DNA of 64,000 bases. Source: Escherichia phage vB_EcoM_KWBSE43-6. The stretch's first letter is position 1, and every line of letters starts with the position of its first letter. Positions 22,308-34,780 of this stretch are shown here, piece by piece. The notes under the pieces were generated by a model that saw nothing but the letters and a program-made list of their open reading frames with translations, made no database searches and had not been told where the DNA came from. The position numbers were made by a program, and so were the translations under genes. The DNA is taken from sequence record NC_048186.1. One strand, 5' to 3'.

Positions 22308-22381
22308 TGGAAGGAGCACCAGGATTCGAACCTGAGATCATGGGATCAAAGCCCATTGCCTTACCGCTTGGCTATGCTCCT
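22308..22381 (-). tRNA. tRNA-Gln (anticodon UUG), CCA encoded
   Basis: Manual cloverleaf: acceptor AGGAGCA/TGCTCCT, D-loop GCCAAGCGGTAAGGC, anticodon loop CUUUGAU, T-loop TTCGAAT. Confidence 0.8.
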
Positions 22382-22541
22382 AAAATTGGGAGAGGTACGC
22401 CAGAGTCGAACTGGAAACAGTATTTGACTGGATTATTTGCATTTAGGCCAGTCATCCCCTGTCTTTTGATCTCCACCCCATCTGCGGCCTGGTGCCGGAT
22501 GCACCCAACATTCAGGTTGCGGGAGAACATACCCCTTAATT

Positions 22542-22625
22542 TGGTGAGGGAGGATGGATTCGAACCACCGAAGCCGAAACACCTGATTTACAGTCAGGCC
22601 CATTTGACCACTCTGGTACTCCCCC
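22542..22625 (-). tRNA. tRNA-Tyr (anticodon GUA), long variable arm, CCA encoded
   Basis: Manual fold: anticodon arm CCTGA-CUGUAAA-TCAGG, long variable arm, T-loop TTCGAAT. Confidence 0.75.
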
Positions 22626-23043
22626 GAATTTGGACGGGCTTCTCACCCGATTGTGCATTTGATCTGCCGTAGCCCAACTCCCCGCGTCGTAACGCCGATT
22701 GGTTAACTGGCACCAGTGCCTTCTGGTGTGATCCCTTGGAACTTTACAGGCTTCGCGCCAAACCATTTCTGGTAGTTGGGGCATCGTTTCCGATGTAGGG
22801 TTCCCCCATTTTAACACAGCTGGCTGCAACGCTTACTGTGTTTGTATCAGAGTGTCCGGTGTAGCATTCCGTGAGGTGCGCACTACTGTAGCCTCTACAC
22901 TCTGAATTTGTATGAAGTGGGAATCACTCTCCTGGGTGTCTGTATCCTGCGGCCTTACATTGGCAGCTATCGCGCGATTCGCACTTCCGAAGGCGCTTTG
23001 AGACACTCCACTTCAATTTGATGATGCCACACCACGTCTGGTT

Positions 23044-23114
23044 TGTTGAATCCAGGATTCGAACCTGGGATACCTGCCTTACAGGCGAGTCGCTTTGCCT
23101 CAGCGTTATTCAAC
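23044..23114 (-). tRNA. tRNA, identity uncertain (anticodon loop CUGUAAG, possibly GUA; one mismatch in anticodon stem)
   Basis: Acceptor GTTGAAT/ATTCAAC, T-arm CCAGG-TTCGAAT-CCTGG; anticodon stem imperfect, could be a pseudo-tRNA. Confidence 0.5.
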
Positions 23115-23239
23115 TGGCACCAATTTGGTGGGCGTTACTTTCGTCGGTTTCAGATTCCGTTCGGCTATTGGACGTTGTTCCAAAGAACTTGTCGGTCGCG
23201 TACTTCGTGCTTACTCGCTTTCGTTTCACACCCATTGTC

Positions 23240-23315
23240 TGGCGATGGTGGCAGGACTTGAACCTGCGACATATGGATTAACAGTCCACCGTTCTACCGA
23301 CTGAACTACACCATC
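23240..23315 (-). tRNA. tRNA-Asn (anticodon GUU), CCA encoded
   Basis: Acceptor GATGGTG/CACCATC, D-arm GTTCAGTCGGTAGAAC, anticodon loop CUGUUAA, T-loop TTCAAGT. Confidence 0.8.
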
Positions 23316-23322
23316 ATCAATT

Positions 23323-23409
23323 TGGCGGAAAGTCTGAGATTCGAACTCAGGGGGCATTACACCCGACGATTTTCAAGACCGTTGCCTTAAACCGCTCGGC
23401 CAACTTTCC
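23323..23409 (-). tRNA. tRNA-Ser (anticodon UGA), long variable arm, CCA encoded
   Basis: Acceptor GGAAAGT/ACTTTCC, D-loop GCCGAGCGGTTTAAGGC, anticodon loop CUUGAAA, variable arm CGGGTGTAATGCCCC. Confidence 0.8.
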
Positions 23410-23415
23410 TTTGTA

Positions 23416-23501
23416 TGGTGGAAGATACAGGATTCGAACCTGTGCAACCTTTCGGTTGTACACCTTAGCAGGGTGCTGCAATACCGCTCTGCCAATCTTC
23501 C
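23416..23501 (-). tRNA. tRNA-Ser (anticodon GCU), long variable arm, CCA encoded
   Basis: Acceptor GGAAGAT/ATCTTCC, anticodon loop CUGCUAA, long variable arm, T-loop TTCGAAT. Confidence 0.75.
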
Positions 23502-23692
23502 TATTTATTCGCTTCTATGGCTCGAAGTTGCTTCTCAGCGTCTTCTTTGGATTCATGTGTTCCCAAAACCTTTGTTTTGGTATGGTCCAACACAACCCAA
23601 TGATCACCACGCTTTTCAACAAACTCAACAATTTCTTTGTTGTCAGTCGCAAGACCATCCCATTCAGTTAAGAACTCACCGAACGTTTTCAT
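23501..23692 (-). CDS. small hypothetical protein embedded in tRNA cluster
   Basis: ORF track 23501..23719 (non-ATG start); likely start MMKTFGEF at 23692; protein-like composition. Confidence 0.5.
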   Translation of the reverse strand: MKTFGEFLTEWDGLATDNKEIVEFVEKRGDHWVVLDHTKTKVLGTHESKEDAEKQLRAIEANK

Positions 23693-23919
23693 CATACTCA
23701 CCAATCGTTTATTGAACAACTGGTTTATTTAGGTGCTCCCGAGGCGGTATTTTAATCCCGCGATCCCATCTCGCCTGCCGTAGACCAGAGCTTGTTGGCA
23801 GTCCAACAAATTTGGCGGGGTCTGAGGATTTTCACCTCACCTGCTGGATTGGCCTCCAGCCGTTCTCTCTGGGGACTCGCCGTCCGGACAGCTATCCCTT
23901 AAACTATCGCCCCTTAATA

Positions 23920-23995
23920 TGGTGATCCTGATTGGTTTTGAACCAATGACCAATCGATTATGAGTCGACTGCTCTAACCACTGAGCTACAGGACC
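23920..23995 (-). tRNA. tRNA-Met/Ile-type (anticodon CAU), CCA encoded
   Basis: Acceptor GGTCCTG/CAGGATC, D-arm GCTCAGTGGTTAGAGC, anticodon loop CUCAUAA, T-loop TTCAAAA. Confidence 0.75.
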
Positions 23996-27232: not shown

Positions 27233-27539
27233 AATAAGATCCTCTTGTAGAATTGAAATAAACGCCATCATTATAATAGAACGATTGTTATTGAATATTG
27301 GTCTCTAAATTACAGGAGTGTTTTATTAATAGGCAGAAACTACTTTTCTAACACATCTCTAGACTGTATGCTAACGCTGTGCCCTTCGAGTTGTGAGTGT
27401 CAACGAACAACGAGAAGCAGCCTCCCTGGCTGTGGAAGGGTGCCAGCCCGCACAGGGCGGTCTTACGAGCGAAGCGAGTTGATTAATATATTTGATAATA
27501 ACGCGCGCGAGAGTAAATTCCTTTCTCTGTCTTCAACAG

Positions 27540-27546
27540 CTAAATA
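27540..27546 (+). promoter_or_regulatory. late-promoter-like motif CTAAATA
   Basis: Motif about 40 nt upstream of the baseplate wedge start; same heptamer recurs upstream of at least nine other plus-strand structural genes. Confidence 0.35.
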
Positions 27547-27586
27547 TCTCCAACACCATATTCAAACTTGTGTGACGGAGATCAAC

Positions 27587-29368
27587 ATGGCTACACAAAC
27601 AGTTCCTTCACTCGACGTCAGGGCTTTCGAATACATTATCAAGCAGCGTATGAAAGCTGATCCGACCTTCAAGGATTATGACTTTGAAGGATCTGGTCTC
27701 AGTGCTATCATCCGTCTGCTCGCCTCTGACGCGAATGCTATCGGCTTTATGCAAAACATGCTGAACGGAGAGAGTCACCTCCAATCAGCCCAACAACGTT
27801 CTAATGTTGGTTTGTCATCTGCATTCTTGTCGTACACTCCTGAGAACTATCAGGCGGCGTATATGTATGCAAATGTTAAAGTCACTCCATATGACGCGAC
27901 GACAGCGCCAAGCGAAATCATCATGGATCGCAAGGTTATGTTTGTTGGGGCCAAAGATGGGAAGTCTTACAACTTCACCGTTGAGAAGCCTGTGTCCACA
28001 ACCCTGCGACCAGAAGGATATTATCTTTTTGAGAATGTAAAACTCATTCAGGGTGATTGGCTTTACAAAACGTATGATGTTGAAGGTAGCGCGATCAGTA
28101 CATACAAGATCCCATCTACTAATGTAGATATCAACCATCTGGTTGTCAACGTGCAGGAATCTGAGACTTCTGATGTTTCTTACACATTTGATCGTTATAA
28201 CAGTCCGTTTGATCTGAATCAATACGCTCGTCTTTATTTCGTGGAATTGGGACTTGATGGCTTCTACACTTTTGAATTTGGGGATGGTTATATTTGCCGT
28301 CGTGTTGAAGACGGGAACGTCGTGTTCTTGCAGTATCTGGAGACTTCCGGCGCGGACGGCAACGATATCACTTCAGTTTCATCCGCGACTGCAATCGCTG
28401 GGAACAACCTGGTGGATATCGAACTCGTATCAGAAAGAAGTGCAGGCGGTACTGATCCAGAGTCCATAGAGGATACCAAGCGTCTTGCCCCTCTGAGCTA
28501 TCAGGCGGATGGTGCAGCGGTGGCCGAAACAGACTATGCCTACCTGACAGAGAAACTCTTCTCGAACGTTCTACGGGCTAAAGGCTATGGTGGAGATACG
28601 CTCAATCCACCGGACCCTGGTTATGTTTACATCGCGGTAATCCCAACAGTTGGTGAAACACTTTCCGATGCTGAGAAAGCCGATATCGTGTCTACCCTTG
28701 ACAAATACAATGTCGGTTCTATAACTCCGAAGGTTGTGGATGCTGAAGTCACATATATCCAGGTCAATACCACGATATTCTGGGATCCAACTGCTACAGC
28801 GTATGCTGAAGACGGTTTGAAAACTCTTGTCAAGAAAGGTGTAGTCACCTGGGGAACCAATAATCTTGACAATTTTGATGAGCTGTTTGACAAAGAAGTT
28901 TTGCAAAACGCCATAACAGATATGGAGCGTTCCATCGTTTCCAATATTACTTCTGTCGCATACAAGCGTCACTTCAAACCAGAATATGGTGTTCTTGACA
29001 GCTTCACGTTTGATTTCGGTCGTTCCATCAAATCTGGCTCGGTTGTTATCAACGGGTTCAAGCCGCTTCCAGCTGAAGTTGACTTCACTTATTACATCCG
29101 GGATGTAAATGGTGTTCTCAATATGTACAAGGTCAGCACTTCTGATACGACGAAGGAATATCTGGTGCAGGCTGTTGGTGTCGTTGATTATGCGAATGGC
29201 GTCGTTGAACTTCAGCAGATCACAGTGTCAAACTATGATGAAGGCGGCGCGGCGATTGTCGTGTCTCCGGAAGGATTAAACCAGAACATCCAGGTTACAT
29301 CCAATCAGGTTCTTCGTATTGGTGATGTGACCGTAGACGCGGAGGTCCGCTATGTCCAAAGATCTTAA
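27587..29368 (+). CDS. baseplate wedge protein (T4 gp6-like)
   Basis: Start MATQTVPSLDV with GGAG SD (ORF track start 27368 is an upstream extension); motif DYDFEGS matches the T4 gp6 N-terminal region as recalled. Confidence 0.7.
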   Translation: MATQTVPSLDVRAFEYIIKQRMKADPTFKDYDFEGSGLSAIIRLLASDANAIGFMQNMLNGESHLQSAQQRSNVGLSSAFLSYTPENYQAAYMYANVKVTPYDATTAPSEIIMDRKVMFVGAKDGKSYNFTVEKPVSTTLRPEGYYLFENVKLIQGDWLYKTYDVEGSAISTYKIPSTNVDINHLVVNVQESETSDVSYTFDRYNSPFDLNQYARLYFVELGLDGFYTFEFGDGYICRRVEDGNVVFLQYLETSGADGNDITSVSSATAIAGNNLVDIELVSERSAGGTDPESIEDTKRLAPLSYQADGAAVAETDYAYLTEKLFSNVLRAKGYGGDTLNPPDPGYVYIAVIPTVGETLSDAEKADIVSTLDKYNVGSITPKVVDAEVTYIQVNTTIFWDPTATAYAEDGLKTLVKKGVVTWGTNNLDNFDELFDKEVLQNAITDMERSIVSNITSVAYKRHFKPEYGVLDSFTFDFGRSIKSGSVVINGFKPLPAEVDFTYYIRDVNGVLNMYKVSTSDTTKEYLVQAVGVVDYANGVVELQQITVSNYDEGGAAIVVSPEGLNQNIQVTSNQVLRIGDVTVDAEVRYVQRS

Positions 29369-30203
29369 TAACGGACATCTGGGCGTCAAATATGAGACGC
29401 CGTTGTTCTACCAGAACGATTTCCCTCTGTTCATTGAGTTCATGGATACGTTCTTCAATTGGCTGTATCGCCAAAACGGTTTCACTGAAGAAGAAATCCT
29501 TGCTTACCTGGCGGACACCAGTTGGCTGAATCCGGCTAGTGACGCCAGCCCGCTGATGCAGCTGGTAGACCTGAAGATACAGAAGACGCCCGGTACTGCT
29601 GTGCGTGATATGCTCCTCGACAAATATCTGGTCAGGACATTTGAGCAAATGATGGCGCTTGATACTGAAGAATTGTTGGACTCTGATGGGCGTCCTCTAT
29701 TTTCACCTGAAGACAAGAATTCAAGTATTGATGCCTGGTATAAAGAATTCGGGTTTCAAAGAACGGTTGACAAATCTTTTCCTGAATTTGGGTTCTTTGT
29801 ACCAGAAGGATCTGATGGTCTTATTACAGCGGATGGCAACCAGTTCTCGGTTTATATCGAGGGAACGCGCCGCCGGACATTAGATCACACCCGCTGGCTG
29901 AAATTGTTGAAGCATATCTATAAAATACGGGGAACGCAGAAAGCAATAGAATTGTTCTTCTGGATTTATTTCGGTGTTCCAGTTACTGTATATTATCCGA
30001 AAGAAGATTTGGCTGGTTTGGATGCTAACTTTGATTGTGATGGTGAAGTTGGTCTTCGTGATGATTACTACTATGACGAATACACATATGTCATAAGAAT
30101 ACCTGGCGACGTCGCAGATTTCGAAGGTGTATTCGATCGCGTGTTCCGTCAACACTTCCATCCATCTGGTTTCAAAGTATTCCTCGAAAGCACTAGGAGT
30201 TAA
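29352..30203 (+). CDS. baseplate/tail structural protein, hypothetical
   Basis: 283-aa ORF overlapping the end of the gp6-like gene; placement in baseplate module. Confidence 0.5.
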   Translation: MSKDLNNGHLGVKYETPLFYQNDFPLFIEFMDTFFNWLYRQNGFTEEEILAYLADTSWLNPASDASPLMQLVDLKIQKTPGTAVRDMLLDKYLVRTFEQMMALDTEELLDSDGRPLFSPEDKNSSIDAWYKEFGFQRTVDKSFPEFGFFVPEGSDGLITADGNQFSVYIEGTRRRTLDHTRWLKLLKHIYKIRGTQKAIELFFWIYFGVPVTVYYPKEDLAGLDANFDCDGEVGLRDDYYYDEYTYVIRIPGDVADFEGVFDRVFRQHFHPSGFKVFLESTRS

Positions 30204-30207
30204 GAAA

Positions 30208-31461
30208 ATGGCTGATTATCTGAGCAAATATACAGGCCAGCAGATAGATAGTATTCTAGATGCGGTCGATGGAAAACTGAACAAAACTGATGTCGTGAAC
30301 GATATCACGGTAGATGACGACCTGTCCCCGGCGTCAGCACACCTTACGTTCGTCTTAAAATCTGCTATCGATACAATGAACGATGTTTTGACCAACAAAG
30401 TTGTTCGTACCGATGGGCAAGAACAAACGATAAACGGGAAAAAGACTTTTGCGTCTGTTCTGAATGCAAATGGTGGCATCGTAGTCCCGGCCCAACGCTC
30501 TATAACGATCACGGATGAACCTGCGGCCAACACGGATGCGGTGAACCTCAGCATGTTGAAAAAACATGGGCTGAGCACTGTGGATTCCGTTGGTTCTGGT
30601 TCTGGTCTGAAGATTTCGTTGCTTTCCAATGGTTACAACAAATTGGAAGTCGATCTCTCTAATCTTGTCGTGAGGACAGACACAGCGCTCCCTCAATCGC
30701 TGGCTGTGTATTCACCCACAGGTGGGTCACAAATATGGTCTATGACAAGCCTGTTCAACAGTTTTTTCGCTGACACTCGTTTCAACGACTACGTGAAGGT
30801 CGTGGAATATGATTCAGATATGCTGAACATTGAAACGCAATTCACTAGCGTCAACAACCGCATAAATCTGAAACTGGATACTGCGACATATACGACGAAA
30901 ATGACCAGTCTGGATTCTCAGATAGCGAATTTACAATCTGGGAAAGTGGATAATACGACGTATACGGCGAAAATGACAAGCCTTGACAGTCAAATCAGCG
31001 GCCTGTCTACGAATAAAGTTGACAAATCGACGTATGACACCAAAATGGCTAGTTTAGACGGTCAAATCAGTGATCTGACTACAAACAAAGTCGATGTGTC
31101 GACGTACACTACTGATATGAACGCCTTGAATTTGGCGCTGGCGGGTTCGGTGAAATTGGCTAAAACCAACACCACCAGTGTTTCTGTCCCGGCTTCTGGT
31201 AGTGCTGCGTTACCTGATTTCACTTTGGTGAATCTGTGTCAAATTTTGATTACAGCCAAATGGGGTACATTGGTTGATACGTTCTTGGTCACAATGACGT
31301 ATGACGGTACTCTTCAGGCAACGTCATTGACACAAAAAAGTACGGCGGGGACTTTGTCGTTCGCAGGTTCTGTTGTTTCAGGTAAACTACGCCTGACAAT
31401 GACCAATGCTAATACAACAACCGCAGCATCTGTCGATTATTCACTTCGTGCTTCTTTCTAA
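30208..31461 (+). CDS. tail fibre protein with tandem 24-aa repeats
   Basis: Start MADYLSKYTGQQ with AGGAG SD; three and a fraction tandem repeats YTxKMTSLDSQIxxLxxxKVDxxT. Confidence 0.65.
   Translation: MADYLSKYTGQQIDSILDAVDGKLNKTDVVNDITVDDDLSPASAHLTFVLKSAIDTMNDVLTNKVVRTDGQEQTINGKKTFASVLNANGGIVVPAQRSITITDEPAANTDAVNLSMLKKHGLSTVDSVGSGSGLKISLLSNGYNKLEVDLSNLVVRTDTALPQSLAVYSPTGGSQIWSMTSLFNSFFADTRFNDYVKVVEYDSDMLNIETQFTSVNNRINLKLDTATYTTKMTSLDSQIANLQSGKVDNTTYTAKMTSLDSQISGLSTNKVDKSTYDTKMASLDGQISDLTTNKVDVSTYTTDMNALNLALAGSVKLAKTNTTSVSVPASGSAALPDFTLVNLCQILITAKWGTLVDTFLVTMTYDGTLQATSLTQKSTAGTLSFAGSVVSGKLRLTMTNANTTTAASVDYSLRASF
30889..31140 (+). repeat. tandem in-frame 72-nt repeat (about 3.5 copies) inside tail fibre gene
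   Basis: Copies begin at 30889, 30961, 31033, each starting tatacg/tatgac...aaaatg. Confidence 0.7.
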
Positions 31462-31512: not shown

Positions 31513-34500
31513 ATGGCTAATAAACCCACGAAACCAAATTTTCCGCTTGGGCTTGAATCACAAGATCAATCCGTATTTCAAGAAGGTATTCTGAATAATG
31601 GTGTTGTAGAACATGGCCCAGATGCGGTAATGACTGTGCCAGAAACTCCTGACGCATCTGGGGTTCCTTCTGCTGTCCGTTATAACGAAGATGACGACCA
31701 GTTTGAAGGCTATTACAACGAAGGCGGTTGGTTGCCGCTTGGGGGTGGTAACGGTGGGCGCTGGGAACTCCTTCCGCATGCCCCCTCTTCCTTGTTACAG
31801 CTCGGTCGTGCATATCTGGTGGATAACACTGACGGTGCCTCTACGGTGGTTTTCCCTCCCCCTAAACGGGTTGGTGATAGCATCACTGTGTGTGACCTTT
31901 TTGGTAAATTCTCAACTTATCCTCTGACTGTTGACGGTAACGGTAAATCGATCTATGGCTCTGCGGATAGCATGACGATTTCTACCGATAACGTCAGCGC
32001 GACGTTTACGTGGACTGGTGAATCCCGTGGCTGGGTTATTACATCAGGCGTCGGTCTGGGACAAGGCCGGGTTTATAGTCGCGAAATTTACAGCCAAATT
32101 CTGTCAGCGACAACACCATCTATTACCCTGAGCACTCAACCATCTATTGTAGATGTGTATGTTGACGGAAAACGTTTGAAAGAATCCCTGTATACTCTCG
32201 ACGGGTATGAAGTTAAATTCGATCCGGCGCTGGCCTCTGGTTCTGATGTGCAGATTATTCAGTACATCCCAATTCAGCTCGGCGCGGGCGGTGGGGGTTC
32301 TGGTGGAACTGTAATCACCTGGGAATACAACGGCGGCTCAGCTATCGGCGGAGAAACCCAAATCGTGTTGGATGTGGTCGTGGACTCAGTATCTGAGATC
32401 TACATCCGTGGTTCCCGTCAACAGATAGGGCGCGGGTTCACATTTGATCCTGCCACCAGTACGATTACCTTGGCGGATGAACTGGATGCCGGGGATGACG
32501 TTGTCGTCGTTATCAACGGTGACCCAACGGTCTACAACCAAATAGATCGCACTCCTTGGGAAGTTGCTCGGGCGTTTAACGTCTCAAATAACAGCGTCAT
32601 TATGAGCAATGACAGGAATACTACCCTTGACGGGAAAACGATAGTATACGATATTAACAGTCAAAACTCTTGGGAAATTCCTGCTGGTATTCCTGTTGGC
32701 GCTAAAATATCAAGTGTTTCTTCAGGGATTCTTGTGTACACCCCTGGTAACGTCAGTGTCACATTGACATTGTTGACGACGGGTACTACTGTTCTGAAAC
32801 GCCTCGCCAATAGCAATTCTGGTAACGGCGGTGATATGGTTCTTTACAAAGCATCTTCAAATGCTGTGGAAAGAGCTATTTCTATGGCGTTGAAAGATTT
32901 TGTAAACCTCCATGATTATTATCTGTCTTCTGATAACGGAGATTGGTATCCTGCATTTAACAGGGCTTTCCAAGATTCCCAAAATATTTTAGTTCCTTAT
33001 GGTTCTCATGTTGTCAAAACCACGGTTGTTCCACCATCCAATTCAAAAATAATTGGTCTTGGGGAAGCCAGTATCGTTAAATCACCAGATGCGATTGACG
33101 CCGCCGCCACAAACCTCGTTACCGTGTTTCGGGCTACTGGTTCAGATAATATATTGATTTCTGATATTACAATAGATGGTGGTGTTAACGAAGTCAACAC
33201 CGCCAAATCCTTTACACGAACTGTAAGGTTCATTAATTGTACCAACGTGTCGTTGCTGAGGGTTCGAGTATTAAACAACGCGGATTGGTCGACATCGTTC
33301 GAAGGCGGTCATGACTTTACGGTGAAGAATTATTACCAAAGATCGTATCGTTATCAGAACACTGCTATCAATTTGAATGGTGGACGTGATGGCCTACATT
33401 TCATGGATTGTTATAATGTGAATGCAGACGGCCTTGACATAGAATCTGGTGATGATTGCGTGGGTATCACCACTACTGGTACAGATCTTGAAAATATCAC
33501 GATTCGTAACCTGTGGGGTTCATCCAATATTGCTTCTCTCGTTATTTTTAACGAAGAAAAAGATTCTAACGATGTGTACTATTCAGCTAATGTCACTGGA
33601 TTGAATATTAGTGGTATCAGGATCAAGAAAGGCGGCAACGCTCGAAATATCGTCAGGGTTATAGGATACGGTGCCAACACCCAAATCAAAGATGTTTCAA
33701 TCTTGGATGTAAGGGGAAAAGCCTTTAACTCTTATGGTATTTGGGTGCAAGGTAGCGTTGACCATCCAGTAGACACAGTACACATAAGCAATTCAGACGT
33801 TGGTTCACAACAGGCCCACGGCGTTCTGTTGCAGAATATAAAACGTTTGTCCGGTAACGTCTATGGTTATTATGAGGGTGTGAATTCTTCCGCTTCATTT
33901 GTTGGTGTGAACATGGTTTCGATCACTGGTGCGATGTTCACTCCAGGTTCTAGAAGTTCTTACGGGTATGGTGTACAAGTTCTGACCAGTAAAGATATCG
34001 TGCTGACACCTGATATCGAAAGTTGCGGCGCTGGGTTGTTCAGCTCTGCTTCTGGGGGTAATTTACGAATAGTAAACTGTGATGGTGTAACCATACCTTA
34101 TGGCCGTGCCGTCGGGGACGTGGCTGTCAGCTATTGGGGTATCAACTTCGGTGGAAATACAAATTTAGACGTGGGTCTGGAATTCGTGTTTGGTGGGTTT
34201 ACCAACTCGTCTCTCCCGAACTCTTATTATTTAAAAGCCCCAGCAGTTGATATCAAATGGAAAGAAGCGTCTGACGGGACTGTGACTATGAGTATCGCTC
34301 GTGGCGCCAGTATAGTCAGAAACAGCCAAGGCAATTTTACAATAACGTTCAACAATGATATGCGCAGTACATTGTTTTCTTGGCAGGCGACCGCCTATCA
34401 CAATGGCGCGTTACGTTTAGTTCGTCTTGCTTCTGCTGTGGGGACTAAAACGATGACGATACAAGTAACGGATACGGCAAATGCCGCGACGTTCGCTGAT

Positions 34501-34542
34501 TTTATAGAATTGAAAGCGTTTAACACTGCTACAGGATCTTAA
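31513..34542 (+). CDS. tailspike / tail fibre protein with beta-helix (pectate-lyase-like) repeats
   Basis: 1009-aa ORF; Gly-rich linker GAGGGGSGG; repetitive NxSGIRI / DVSILDV beta-helix-like coils. Confidence 0.75.
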   Translation: MANKPTKPNFPLGLESQDQSVFQEGILNNGVVEHGPDAVMTVPETPDASGVPSAVRYNEDDDQFEGYYNEGGWLPLGGGNGGRWELLPHAPSSLLQLGRAYLVDNTDGASTVVFPPPKRVGDSITVCDLFGKFSTYPLTVDGNGKSIYGSADSMTISTDNVSATFTWTGESRGWVITSGVGLGQGRVYSREIYSQILSATTPSITLSTQPSIVDVYVDGKRLKESLYTLDGYEVKFDPALASGSDVQIIQYIPIQLGAGGGGSGGTVITWEYNGGSAIGGETQIVLDVVVDSVSEIYIRGSRQQIGRGFTFDPATSTITLADELDAGDDVVVVINGDPTVYNQIDRTPWEVARAFNVSNNSVIMSNDRNTTLDGKTIVYDINSQNSWEIPAGIPVGAKISSVSSGILVYTPGNVSVTLTLLTTGTTVLKRLANSNSGNGGDMVLYKASSNAVERAISMALKDFVNLHDYYLSSDNGDWYPAFNRAFQDSQNILVPYGSHVVKTTVVPPSNSKIIGLGEASIVKSPDAIDAAATNLVTVFRATGSDNILISDITIDGGVNEVNTAKSFTRTVRFINCTNVSLLRVRVLNNADWSTSFEGGHDFTVKNYYQRSYRYQNTAINLNGGRDGLHFMDCYNVNADGLDIESGDDCVGITTTGTDLENITIRNLWGSSNIASLVIFNEEKDSNDVYYSANVTGLNISGIRIKKGGNARNIVRVIGYGANTQIKDVSILDVRGKAFNSYGIWVQGSVDHPVDTVHISNSDVGSQQAHGVLLQNIKRLSGNVYGYYEGVNSSASFVGVNMVSITGAMFTPGSRSSYGYGVQVLTSKDIVLTPDIESCGAGLFSSASGGNLRIVNCDGVTIPYGRAVGDVAVSYWGINFGGNTNLDVGLEFVFGGFTNSSLPNSYYLKAPAVDIKWKEASDGTVTMSIARGASIVRNSQGNFTITFNNDMRSTLFSWQATAYHNGALRLVRLASAVGTKTMTIQVTDTANAATFADFIELKAFNTATGS

Positions 34543-34543
34543 C

Positions 34544-34780
34544 ATGAATATAAATTGTGTTTTTGTGAAAGACGAAATTCCCCTTGAGAAACAAGATGAC
34601 TTTTTGAAATTATTTTTGGAAAGAATATCATTGGAATTCTCTGATGTCGTGATAACGGCAGAATGGGGAGACGATGAAACTGCTGTCGTTTCAGAGGATT
34701 GTTCTGATTACGTCAAAGCAAATTATCAAAGATTTGTAGACGGTCTTAAACAAGACCTCATTATTTTCGATTATTTCTAA
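34544..34780 (+). CDS. small acidic hypothetical protein
   Basis: 78-aa ORF starting 2 nt after tailspike stop. Confidence 0.45.
   Translation: MNINCVFVKDEIPLEKQDDFLKLFLERISLEFSDVVITAEWGDDETAVVSEDCSDYVKANYQRFVDGLKQDLIIFDYF

Follow-up and report, generated by a model that had tools for sequence, protein, structure and literature searches.

A polymorphic in-frame repeat array in a fibre-like gene of a Taipeivirus phage, probably the modular helical shaft of a conserved virion protein

We analyzed a stretch of 64,000 nucleotides (nt) from the record of Escherichia phage vB_EcoM_KWBSE43-6 (NC_048186.1), referred to below as the window, and report here on a tandem repeat array inside one of its genes, which encodes a fibre-like protein of 417 amino acids (aa). 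It is probable, in our judgment, that the array is the central shaft of a conserved fibre-like virion protein, that this shaft is made of modular helical units, and that its length polymorphism arises in whole units through recombination. The repeat is in frame and conserved, relatives of the phage differ in copy number and have chimeric junctions between units, and the unit lengths found in the family are compatible with heptads. The sequence and a monomer model suggest that the shaft may be a trimeric alpha/beta coiled-coil rod with beta-layers, in which each unit would contribute a set length, possibly with an effect on infection.

The array extends from 30799 to 31167 and is composed of three core units of 72 nt (24 aa each; 30880-31095, residues 225-296) with one degenerate unit on each side:

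30799..30879, plus strand: degenerate leading unit VVEYDSDMLNIETQFTSVNNRINLKLD, residues 198-224, 27 aa; AlphaFold2 helix at 198-222; the core pattern Y..DM...[IL] is kept
30880..30951, plus strand: core unit a TATYTTKMTSLDSQIANLQSGKVD, residues 225-248; AlphaFold2 helix at 225-244, with a break at GKVD
30952..31023, plus strand: core unit b NTTYTAKMTSLDSQISGLSTNKVD, residues 249-272; AlphaFold2 helix at 249-268; missing in the a-c and a-c-c alleles of relatives
31024..31095, plus strand: core unit c KSTYDTKMASLDGQISDLTTNKVD, residues 273-296; AlphaFold2 helix at 273-292; duplicated in 441-aa alleles and missing in the a-b allele
31096..31167, plus strand: degenerate trailing unit VSTYTTDMNALNLALAGSVKLAKT, residues 297-320, 24 aa; AlphaFold2 helix at 297-314, the last helix before the C-terminal domain

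An earlier interpretation made from the letters of the window (the sequence-only reading) had described in-frame 72-nt repeats at 30889-31140, in about 3.5 copies with the consensus Y-T-x-K-M-T-S-L-D-S-Q-I-x-x-L-x-x-x-K-V-D-x-x-T. Our analyses confirmed this description: position 30889 begins the codon for Tyr-228, 31140 falls at residue 311, that span equals 3.5 units in the register chosen, and the consensus agrees with the translation. Self-identity peaked at 0.54 for an offset of 72 nt and at 0.53 for an offset of 24 aa, compared with shuffle maxima of 0.36 and 0.17, and none of 2000 codon or residue shuffles reached the observed periodicity. The core units are 56-71% identical to one another in DNA and 58-67% in protein, and their conservation at the protein level, on which the sequence-only reading had depended, therefore holds; the trailing unit has 25-29% identity to the core units. 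At the 14-16 residues conserved within each pair of core units, the same codon is used at only 5-9. That the peptide has been kept while the codons diverged argues for selection on the peptide and not on the DNA and, judged from these sequences, the copies in the array are old. The core-unit copies are too diverged for Tandem Repeats Finder, which called nothing at the array; a repeat search on the DNA detected it with a spacing of 72.

In this region, the strongest matches to a sigma-70-like promoter were observed in repeat units (31019-31046 on the plus strand and 30979-30950 on the minus strand). This is because the codons for K-V-D-K and S-L-D-S recur (TTGACA/TTGTCA; e.g., GTTGACA for V-D-K), and promoter-like and terminator-like matches inside the array are most likely coincidental by-products of its codons.

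Copy number was compared among UniRef cluster representatives at least 89% identical to the query, in which core units were counted with a hidden Markov model of the unit. These representatives were 393, 417 and 441 aa long, corresponding to 2, 3 and 4 core units, and because their flanks align without gaps the length differences are whole units. Among the 40 GenBank matches listed, 15 had the 3-unit length (1335 nt) and 25 the 4-unit length (~1407 nt). When units were named by their heads (a, TAT/TST; b, NTT; c, KST/KTT) in allele DNA from GenBank, Logan and ENA, five arrangements were found: a-b-c, which is that of the window, a-b-c-c, a-c-c, a-c and a-b. Logan/ENA assemblies are the only source of the 2-unit and a-c-c alleles, which nevertheless come from more than one independent sample. 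A neighbour-joining tree, without support values, was calculated from the gene outside the repeats; in it, a-c and a-c-c clustered with one a-b-c lineage, and a-b and a-b-c-c with another. Since the a-b and a-c alleles are in different clades, the unit number has changed more than once.

Junctions between units were visible in the alleles of several relatives. In one of them (L011), unit 1 is the same as unit 2 over its first 57 nt and then has a b-type tail, and the exact in-register run, which begins 3 nt upstream of unit 1, is 60 nt long. The last unit of an a-b allele (L009) has a b head followed by a tail that is half b-type and half c-type, and the third array unit of phage KpS110 (L004) is a c head with a b tail. 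The sequences of these chimeric units indicate that units have exchanged DNA by misaligned in-register recombination or by gene conversion, which bears out the recombination that the sequence-only reading had anticipated. The longest exact in-register match is that 60-nt run in L011, 29-32 nt in the 4-unit alleles and only 10 nt between the units of the window, whose allele is comparatively inert.

The term hypervariable, which had been suggested for the locus, was found to be overstated, as only 2-4 units were seen, the substitution level in the array is ordinary and the units of the window share no more than those 10 identical bases. A tandem, in-frame array that varies in copy number might be expected of a fast-switching, hypermutable contingency locus, or of an assembly artefact. 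Either is very improbable here: the identity between the units of the window and their short identical runs are far below what frequent slippage needs, the alleles are stable enough to recur in many isolates from different laboratories, and a contig in IMG/VR encodes the identical 417-aa protein. Both ideas were rejected on the basis of the low unit identity and of the recurrence of the array in independent isolates; a sequencing or assembly artefact, which the sequence-only reading had raised, is ruled out by the same array having been sequenced independently in dozens of phage isolates.

Length variation was confined to the same region in more distant relatives. When 38 diverse homologues were aligned, length was near-constant (single indels of 1-2 residues only) over the N-terminal 224 and the C-terminal 121 residues, and all larger indels were inside the repeat region, the sole length-variable part across the family. 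Escherichia phage A221 has an exact 27-aa duplication there, and a 369-aa Salmonella-associated sequence has lost one unit. Spacings between Yxx[KD]M anchors were counted in 121 homologues, and the 403 spacings were solely of 20, 24, 27, 34 or 41 aa; the 27-aa spacing of the leading unit occurs in 120 homologues. Units of 20, 27, 34 and 41 aa, which differ by exact heptads, were observed in other genera (P0046, which is phage A221, P0088, P0063 and others), and the shaft therefore evolves also in heptad-sized steps, beyond whole 24-aa units.

Structure prediction of the repeat region with AlphaFold2 gave one helix per unit. In the monomer model, for which the family alignment was the input, the mean predicted local distance difference test score (pLDDT) was 70.9 and the predicted template modeling score (pTM) was 0.30. 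The five helices given above are ~20 residues each and are separated by four-residue breaks at xKVD. The hydrophobic positions in a unit, Y(h), M(a), L(d), I(a) and L(d), have a 4-3-4-3 spacing, after which come the V of KVD (+5) and then the next Y (+5 again). Trimeric coiled coils are known to absorb discontinuities as beta-layers, three-residue elements that usually read K-[A/V]-D (Hartmann et al. 2016, eLife, PMC4786415). A beta-layer follows heptad position c or g, and the register restarts at e (PMC4786415). Each unit can be written in these terms as KVD, efghijk (Y at h), one to four heptads (M at a, L at d) and an optional abc. Under the beta-layer rules a unit should then measure 10+7n or 13+7n aa, and all five observed lengths fit this exactly.

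We hypothesize that each 72-nt unit encodes one amphipathic helix of ~20 residues, closed by a short xKVD break, and that the units would stack end to end, probably as a three-stranded coiled coil interrupted by beta-layers, with the conserved N-terminal domain on one side and the conserved beta-sandwich of the C-terminus on the other. If helical, one unit would represent ~3-3.5 nm of rod (~21 helical residues x 0.15 nm + layer). Whole units would be gained or lost through misaligned in-register homologous recombination or slippage, giving rise to the 2-, 3- and 4-unit alleles. The sequence-only reading had proposed that fibre shaft length changes with copy number, and the prediction that the units are helical shaft segments supports this. 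We would guess that the shaft determines how far a fibre at the baseplate periphery stands off or reaches with respect to the tailspike complex and the host capsule.

Several points weigh against the shaft explanation. The monomer model had its pTM of only 0.30 and low confidence in the N-terminal half. A pseudo-trimer run (three copies of 249-417 joined by 60-residue Gly-Ser linkers) had the same helix pattern as the monomer model, with a pLDDT of 46 and a pTM of 0.25; it gave no oligomer model and was uninformative on the oligomer state. Searches of the PDB and the literature gave no solved structure or experiment for the family to which the protein belongs (phrog_3838). The 2-unit alleles are known only from short-read assemblies, and the tree has no support values. 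The variation in length may be neutral: the tailspike gene adjacent to the array gene in the window occurs in full only in phages cp21 (98.5%) and UPM 2146 (97.6%), which have 4 and 3 units, respectively, despite this common tailspike, so the unit number is not tied to the adjacent tailspike module.

Neutrality of the unit-number variation is thus a serious possibility. On this reading, which we would place somewhat short of an even chance, recombination between co-infecting relatives leaves differences in copy number as a neutral by-product, and the shaft tolerates any of 2-4 units without consequence for its function. The reading is consistent with the decoupling of unit number from the neighbouring tailspike module, with the interleaving of different alleles in the tree and with the different unit numbers and lengths of other genera. 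However, solely whole units and phase-keeping lengths were seen, which points to a structural constraint and is silent on selection for length.

The gene that contains the array is from a Klebsiella phage of the genus Taipeivirus, family Ackermannviridae:

30208..31461, plus strand: fibre-like protein gene, 417 aa (open reading frame (ORF) list; phrog_3838; Menlow annotation)

The start codon is the ATG at 30208 and the stop codon ends at 31461; the GTG at 30127 in the ORF list is a mere upstream extension, because the homologues all begin MAD[YF]LS. The gene is 97.6% identical to that of phage phi1_175010, and ~45 Klebsiella phage records, including 0507-KN2-1, Menlow, KpS110 and UPM 2146, have the gene at 91-97% identity. 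A scan of IMG/VR found six loci, among them the contig mentioned above. By tblastn, a homologue was found in 282 phage records, almost all of them Ackermannviridae-type phages of Enterobacterales, with Salmonella, Klebsiella, Escherichia, Dickeya, Serratia, Shigella and Erwinia as hosts and a protein identity of ~52-55% between genera.

Sequence comparison identifies the 417-aa protein as a homologue of Vi01_174 and of Menlow_046, a "putative tail protein" (phrog_3838). The phrog_3838 profile matched over the full length (residues 1-417, E=3.5e-194), and this PHROG family has no assigned function. No Pfam family was above threshold for the protein, with sub-threshold matches only, and no significant solved relative emerged when the PDB was searched by sequence, either with the protein or with the family profile. 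Records label the protein as hypothetical, putative tail protein or unknown/putative structural protein, and several in GenBank label the product as a structural protein. The name "tail fiber protein" comes from automated sources (UniRef clusters, BFVD) and a few GenBank annotations ("tail fiber" or "putative tail fiber"). Tail fibre gene, as the sequence-only reading called it, is therefore a plausible label, but with a PHROG family that has no function and no Pfam match above threshold it is an unproven one.

The array gene sits between gp6/gp7-like wedge genes and the tailspike cluster, and it has the same gene neighbours in Menlow and in Dickeya phage JA15 as in the window:

27587..29368, plus strand: gp6-like baseplate wedge protein gene (Pfam Gp6_C-I and Gp6-like_1st; phrog_219; Menlow annotation)
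29352..30203, plus strand: baseplate wedge subunit gene (PF23786, Pfam E=3.4e-150), "gp7" in the annotation of JA15
31513..34542, plus strand: first gene of the tailspike cluster (ORF lists; Menlow annotation; family layout in PMC8432352)

The fibre-like gene starts 4 nt after the end of the PF23786 wedge gene. Behind the first tailspike gene are three more tailspike-sized ORFs and then a 1616-aa ORF, which by position and size matches the large gene after the tailspike cluster of Menlow (a Vi01_169 homologue). In the family, the conserved vriC gene flanks the tailspike cluster (PMC8432352). The receptor binders known for such phages are tailspikes, which are encoded downstream of the array gene.

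Additional features were observed in these neighbouring genes. The ORF list stretches the gp6-like gene ~220 nt upstream (27368-27586) of the ATG at 27587, the start used in annotated relatives, and this extension is probably untranslated. The first tailspike gene (31513-34542) is mosaic: its first ~1040-1245 nt are kept in essentially all 45 Klebsiella relatives at 85-96% identity, and the remaining ~2 kilobases are common only to phages cp21 and UPM 2146, which is the known module-swapping pattern of Ackermannviridae tailspikes. A 78-aa ORF (34544-34780) begins 2 nt past the stop codon of this gene, and in Menlow a small gene is likewise found directly behind a tailspike gene, its second; the product might be an assembly or accessory factor. 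Further away in the window is a tRNA cluster on the minus strand (22308-23995) with seven genes (Gln, Tyr x2, Asn, Ser x2, Met), similar to but not identical with the tRNA set of Menlow (Gln, Asn, Ser, Arg, Met).

Outside the array, the fibre-like protein has three regions:

30208..30582, plus strand: N-terminal region, residues 1-125, conserved across genera in the alignment, with predicted helices and then the motif RTDGQEQTINGKKTF; low AlphaFold2 confidence
30583..30798, plus strand: middle beta-rich region, residues 126-197, the most sequence-variable between genera by column entropy
31168..31458, plus strand: C-terminal eight-strand beta-sandwich, residues 321-417, T4 gp9-like in fold and well predicted by AlphaFold2; the best-conserved part

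Mean column entropy was 1.46 bits in residues 126-197, compared with 0.75 bits at the N-terminal end and 0.60 bits at the C-terminal end, and the middle region is 41-48% identical to the Kuttervirus and Limestonevirus homologues. In a comparison across phages of five host genera (Klebsiella, Salmonella, E. coli, Dickeya and Serratia), conservation is highest at the two ends, and the C-terminal domain is the least variable. Judged by sequence variation, this pattern appears unlike that of a host-specific receptor-binding tip.

The conservation pattern bears on whether the protein is a classical short tail fibre, with its N-terminus in the baseplate, a C-terminal sandwich that binds a conserved secondary receptor, and a repeat number selected for reach through capsules of different thickness. 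We consider this possible but rather unlikely. The weak resemblance of the N-terminal region to BppL (see below), the name "tail fiber protein" given to UniRef homologues, and the gp9-like C-terminal sandwiches reported as receptor-binding modules in Klebsiella phages (preprint 10.64898/2026.05.12.724579) are in keeping with it. Against it, a C-terminal domain that is least variable across five host genera is unusual for a receptor-binding tip, and the unit number is unlinked to the adjacent tailspike type. The same preprint (10.64898/2026.05.12.724579) lists, for Taipeivirus, tail fibres of a long and a short "TC14-like" class, and these classes could not be mapped to the array protein.

The fold of the C-terminal domain and the position of the gene raise another candidate role, namely that of T4 gp9: the protein would be its counterpart in Ackermannviridae and act as a trimeric connector, docked by its beta-sandwich on the gp7-like wedge protein. 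The repeats would then be a spacer that keeps, for example, a branched tailspike complex or the "prongs" visible in micrographs a fixed distance away from the baseplate. The gp9-like fold predicted for the C-terminal beta-sandwich fits this proposal, and the order of genes (gp6-like, gp7-like, array gene, tailspikes with gp10-like domains), which parallels 6-7-8-9-10 of T4, is suggestive of it, so that we keep it as a live but minority hypothesis and regard it as doubtful. This is because Pfam PF07880 had no match at E up to 1, and hhalign gave a probability of at most 1% against both T4 gp9 and the gp9 family alignment. Two non-significant hhalign alignments point to different gp9 domains. 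The order of domains differs as well, the coiled coil of gp9 being N-terminal, and the N-terminal motif of the array protein resembles the attachment end of TP901-1 BppL. Nor is the fold specific to gp9, as it also ends many unrelated phage fibres and tailspikes: in a viral model library, the ~100-residue domain recurs in many fibre-like, tailspike-like and gp9-annotated proteins, and "gp9 C-terminal domain-related" modules end many Klebsiella phage receptor-binding proteins (10.64898/2026.05.12.724579). Finally, the family review describes Ackermannviridae as being without gp9-gp11 and as having "prongs" of unknown composition.

The C-terminal peptide SVDYSLRASF (31420-31458) was noted to resemble SVWNYSIESMF at residues 158-168 of T4 gp9 (L008), the end of the gp9 middle domain, in a non-significant hhalign alignment; a second alignment, likewise non-significant, pointed to the C-terminal domain of gp9. 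A more elaborate version of the connector idea, which we view as a long shot, is that Ackermannviridae have kept a gp9-like trimeric connector in the form of the array protein, and that it acquired a modular alpha/beta coiled-coil shaft whose length changes in whole units. Such a protein might be a "prong", or a stalk that positions the branched tailspike complex, with the number of units adjusting baseplate-to-cell geometry on hosts with different capsules.

The shaft explanation that we favour offers a concrete structural hypothesis for a conserved protein encoded just upstream of the tailspikes. Literature searches found no Ackermannviridae baseplate structure and no earlier notice of the repeat array. 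Phages of this family (Kuttervirus, Taipeivirus, Limestonevirus and others) are in wide use as candidates for therapy and biocontrol, and attention has been on their four tailspikes. The alleles with 2, 3 or 4 units are a natural series for asking whether fibre length affects adsorption on capsulated Klebsiella, and unit number is usable as a simple typing marker. The result is incremental, as viral fibres with repeat shafts of variable length are already familiar.

The closest parallel to the array is found in the alpha/beta coiled coils with beta-layers (PMC4786415), in which short helices are split by the three residues K-[AV]-[DE], the central one being small and hydrophobic. Examples in that study include Actinobacillus OMP100 (IENKADKAD), Thermosinus Tcar0761 and, from a streptococcal prophage, the stalk of the tail-fibre hyaluronidase HylP1 (PDB 2C3F). 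The array pattern I/L-x-x-K-V-D-x-x-T-Y parallels the I-E-N-K-A-D-K-A-D-V of a beta-layer example, and unit lengths of 20, 24, 27, 34 and 41 aa obey the beta-layer rules (c/g before, e after). The array differs in that its units are 20-41 aa compared with 9-13 aa, in that there is no sequence homology, and in that its coiled coil is predicted from sequence and a monomer model.

Other likenesses concern the ends of the protein. The C-terminal beta-sandwich is similar in fold to T4 gp9 (PDB 1QEX; PF07880/PF23618), whereas the array protein has no detectable sequence similarity to gp9 and another order of domains, and gp9 is without a repeat array or long shaft. A weak resemblance links residues ~50-97 with the N-terminal part of BppL (PF18338), the receptor-binding protein of lactococcal phage TP901-1, via QTINGKKTF (PDB profile search, E ~0.02): the pattern ...V(x)RTDG.EQTI.GKKTF... 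after the N-terminal helix aligns with BppL 18-65. The Pfam BppL_N match scored 16.4 bits, below the 25.8-bit cut-off, and the remainder of the array protein is unrelated to BppL.

T4 fibritin (wac) is a segmented trimeric coiled-coil fibre, whose helical segments are split by short breaks. The overall design that we propose for the array protein is like that of fibritin, whereas hhalign gave a probability of 1.4% over 13 residues, the array protein ends in a beta-sandwich and fibritin in a foldon, and fibritin is at the neck while the array gene is in the baseplate/tailspike module. Membership of the fibritin and gp9 sequence families was rejected on these hhalign values (1.4%, and at most 1% for gp9). 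The adenovirus fibre has triple beta-spiral repeats with no homology to the array, and a functional effect of length is documented there and not here. What the array would have in common with viral fibre shafts built of modular repeats is that the number of repeats sets the length and differs between related viruses.

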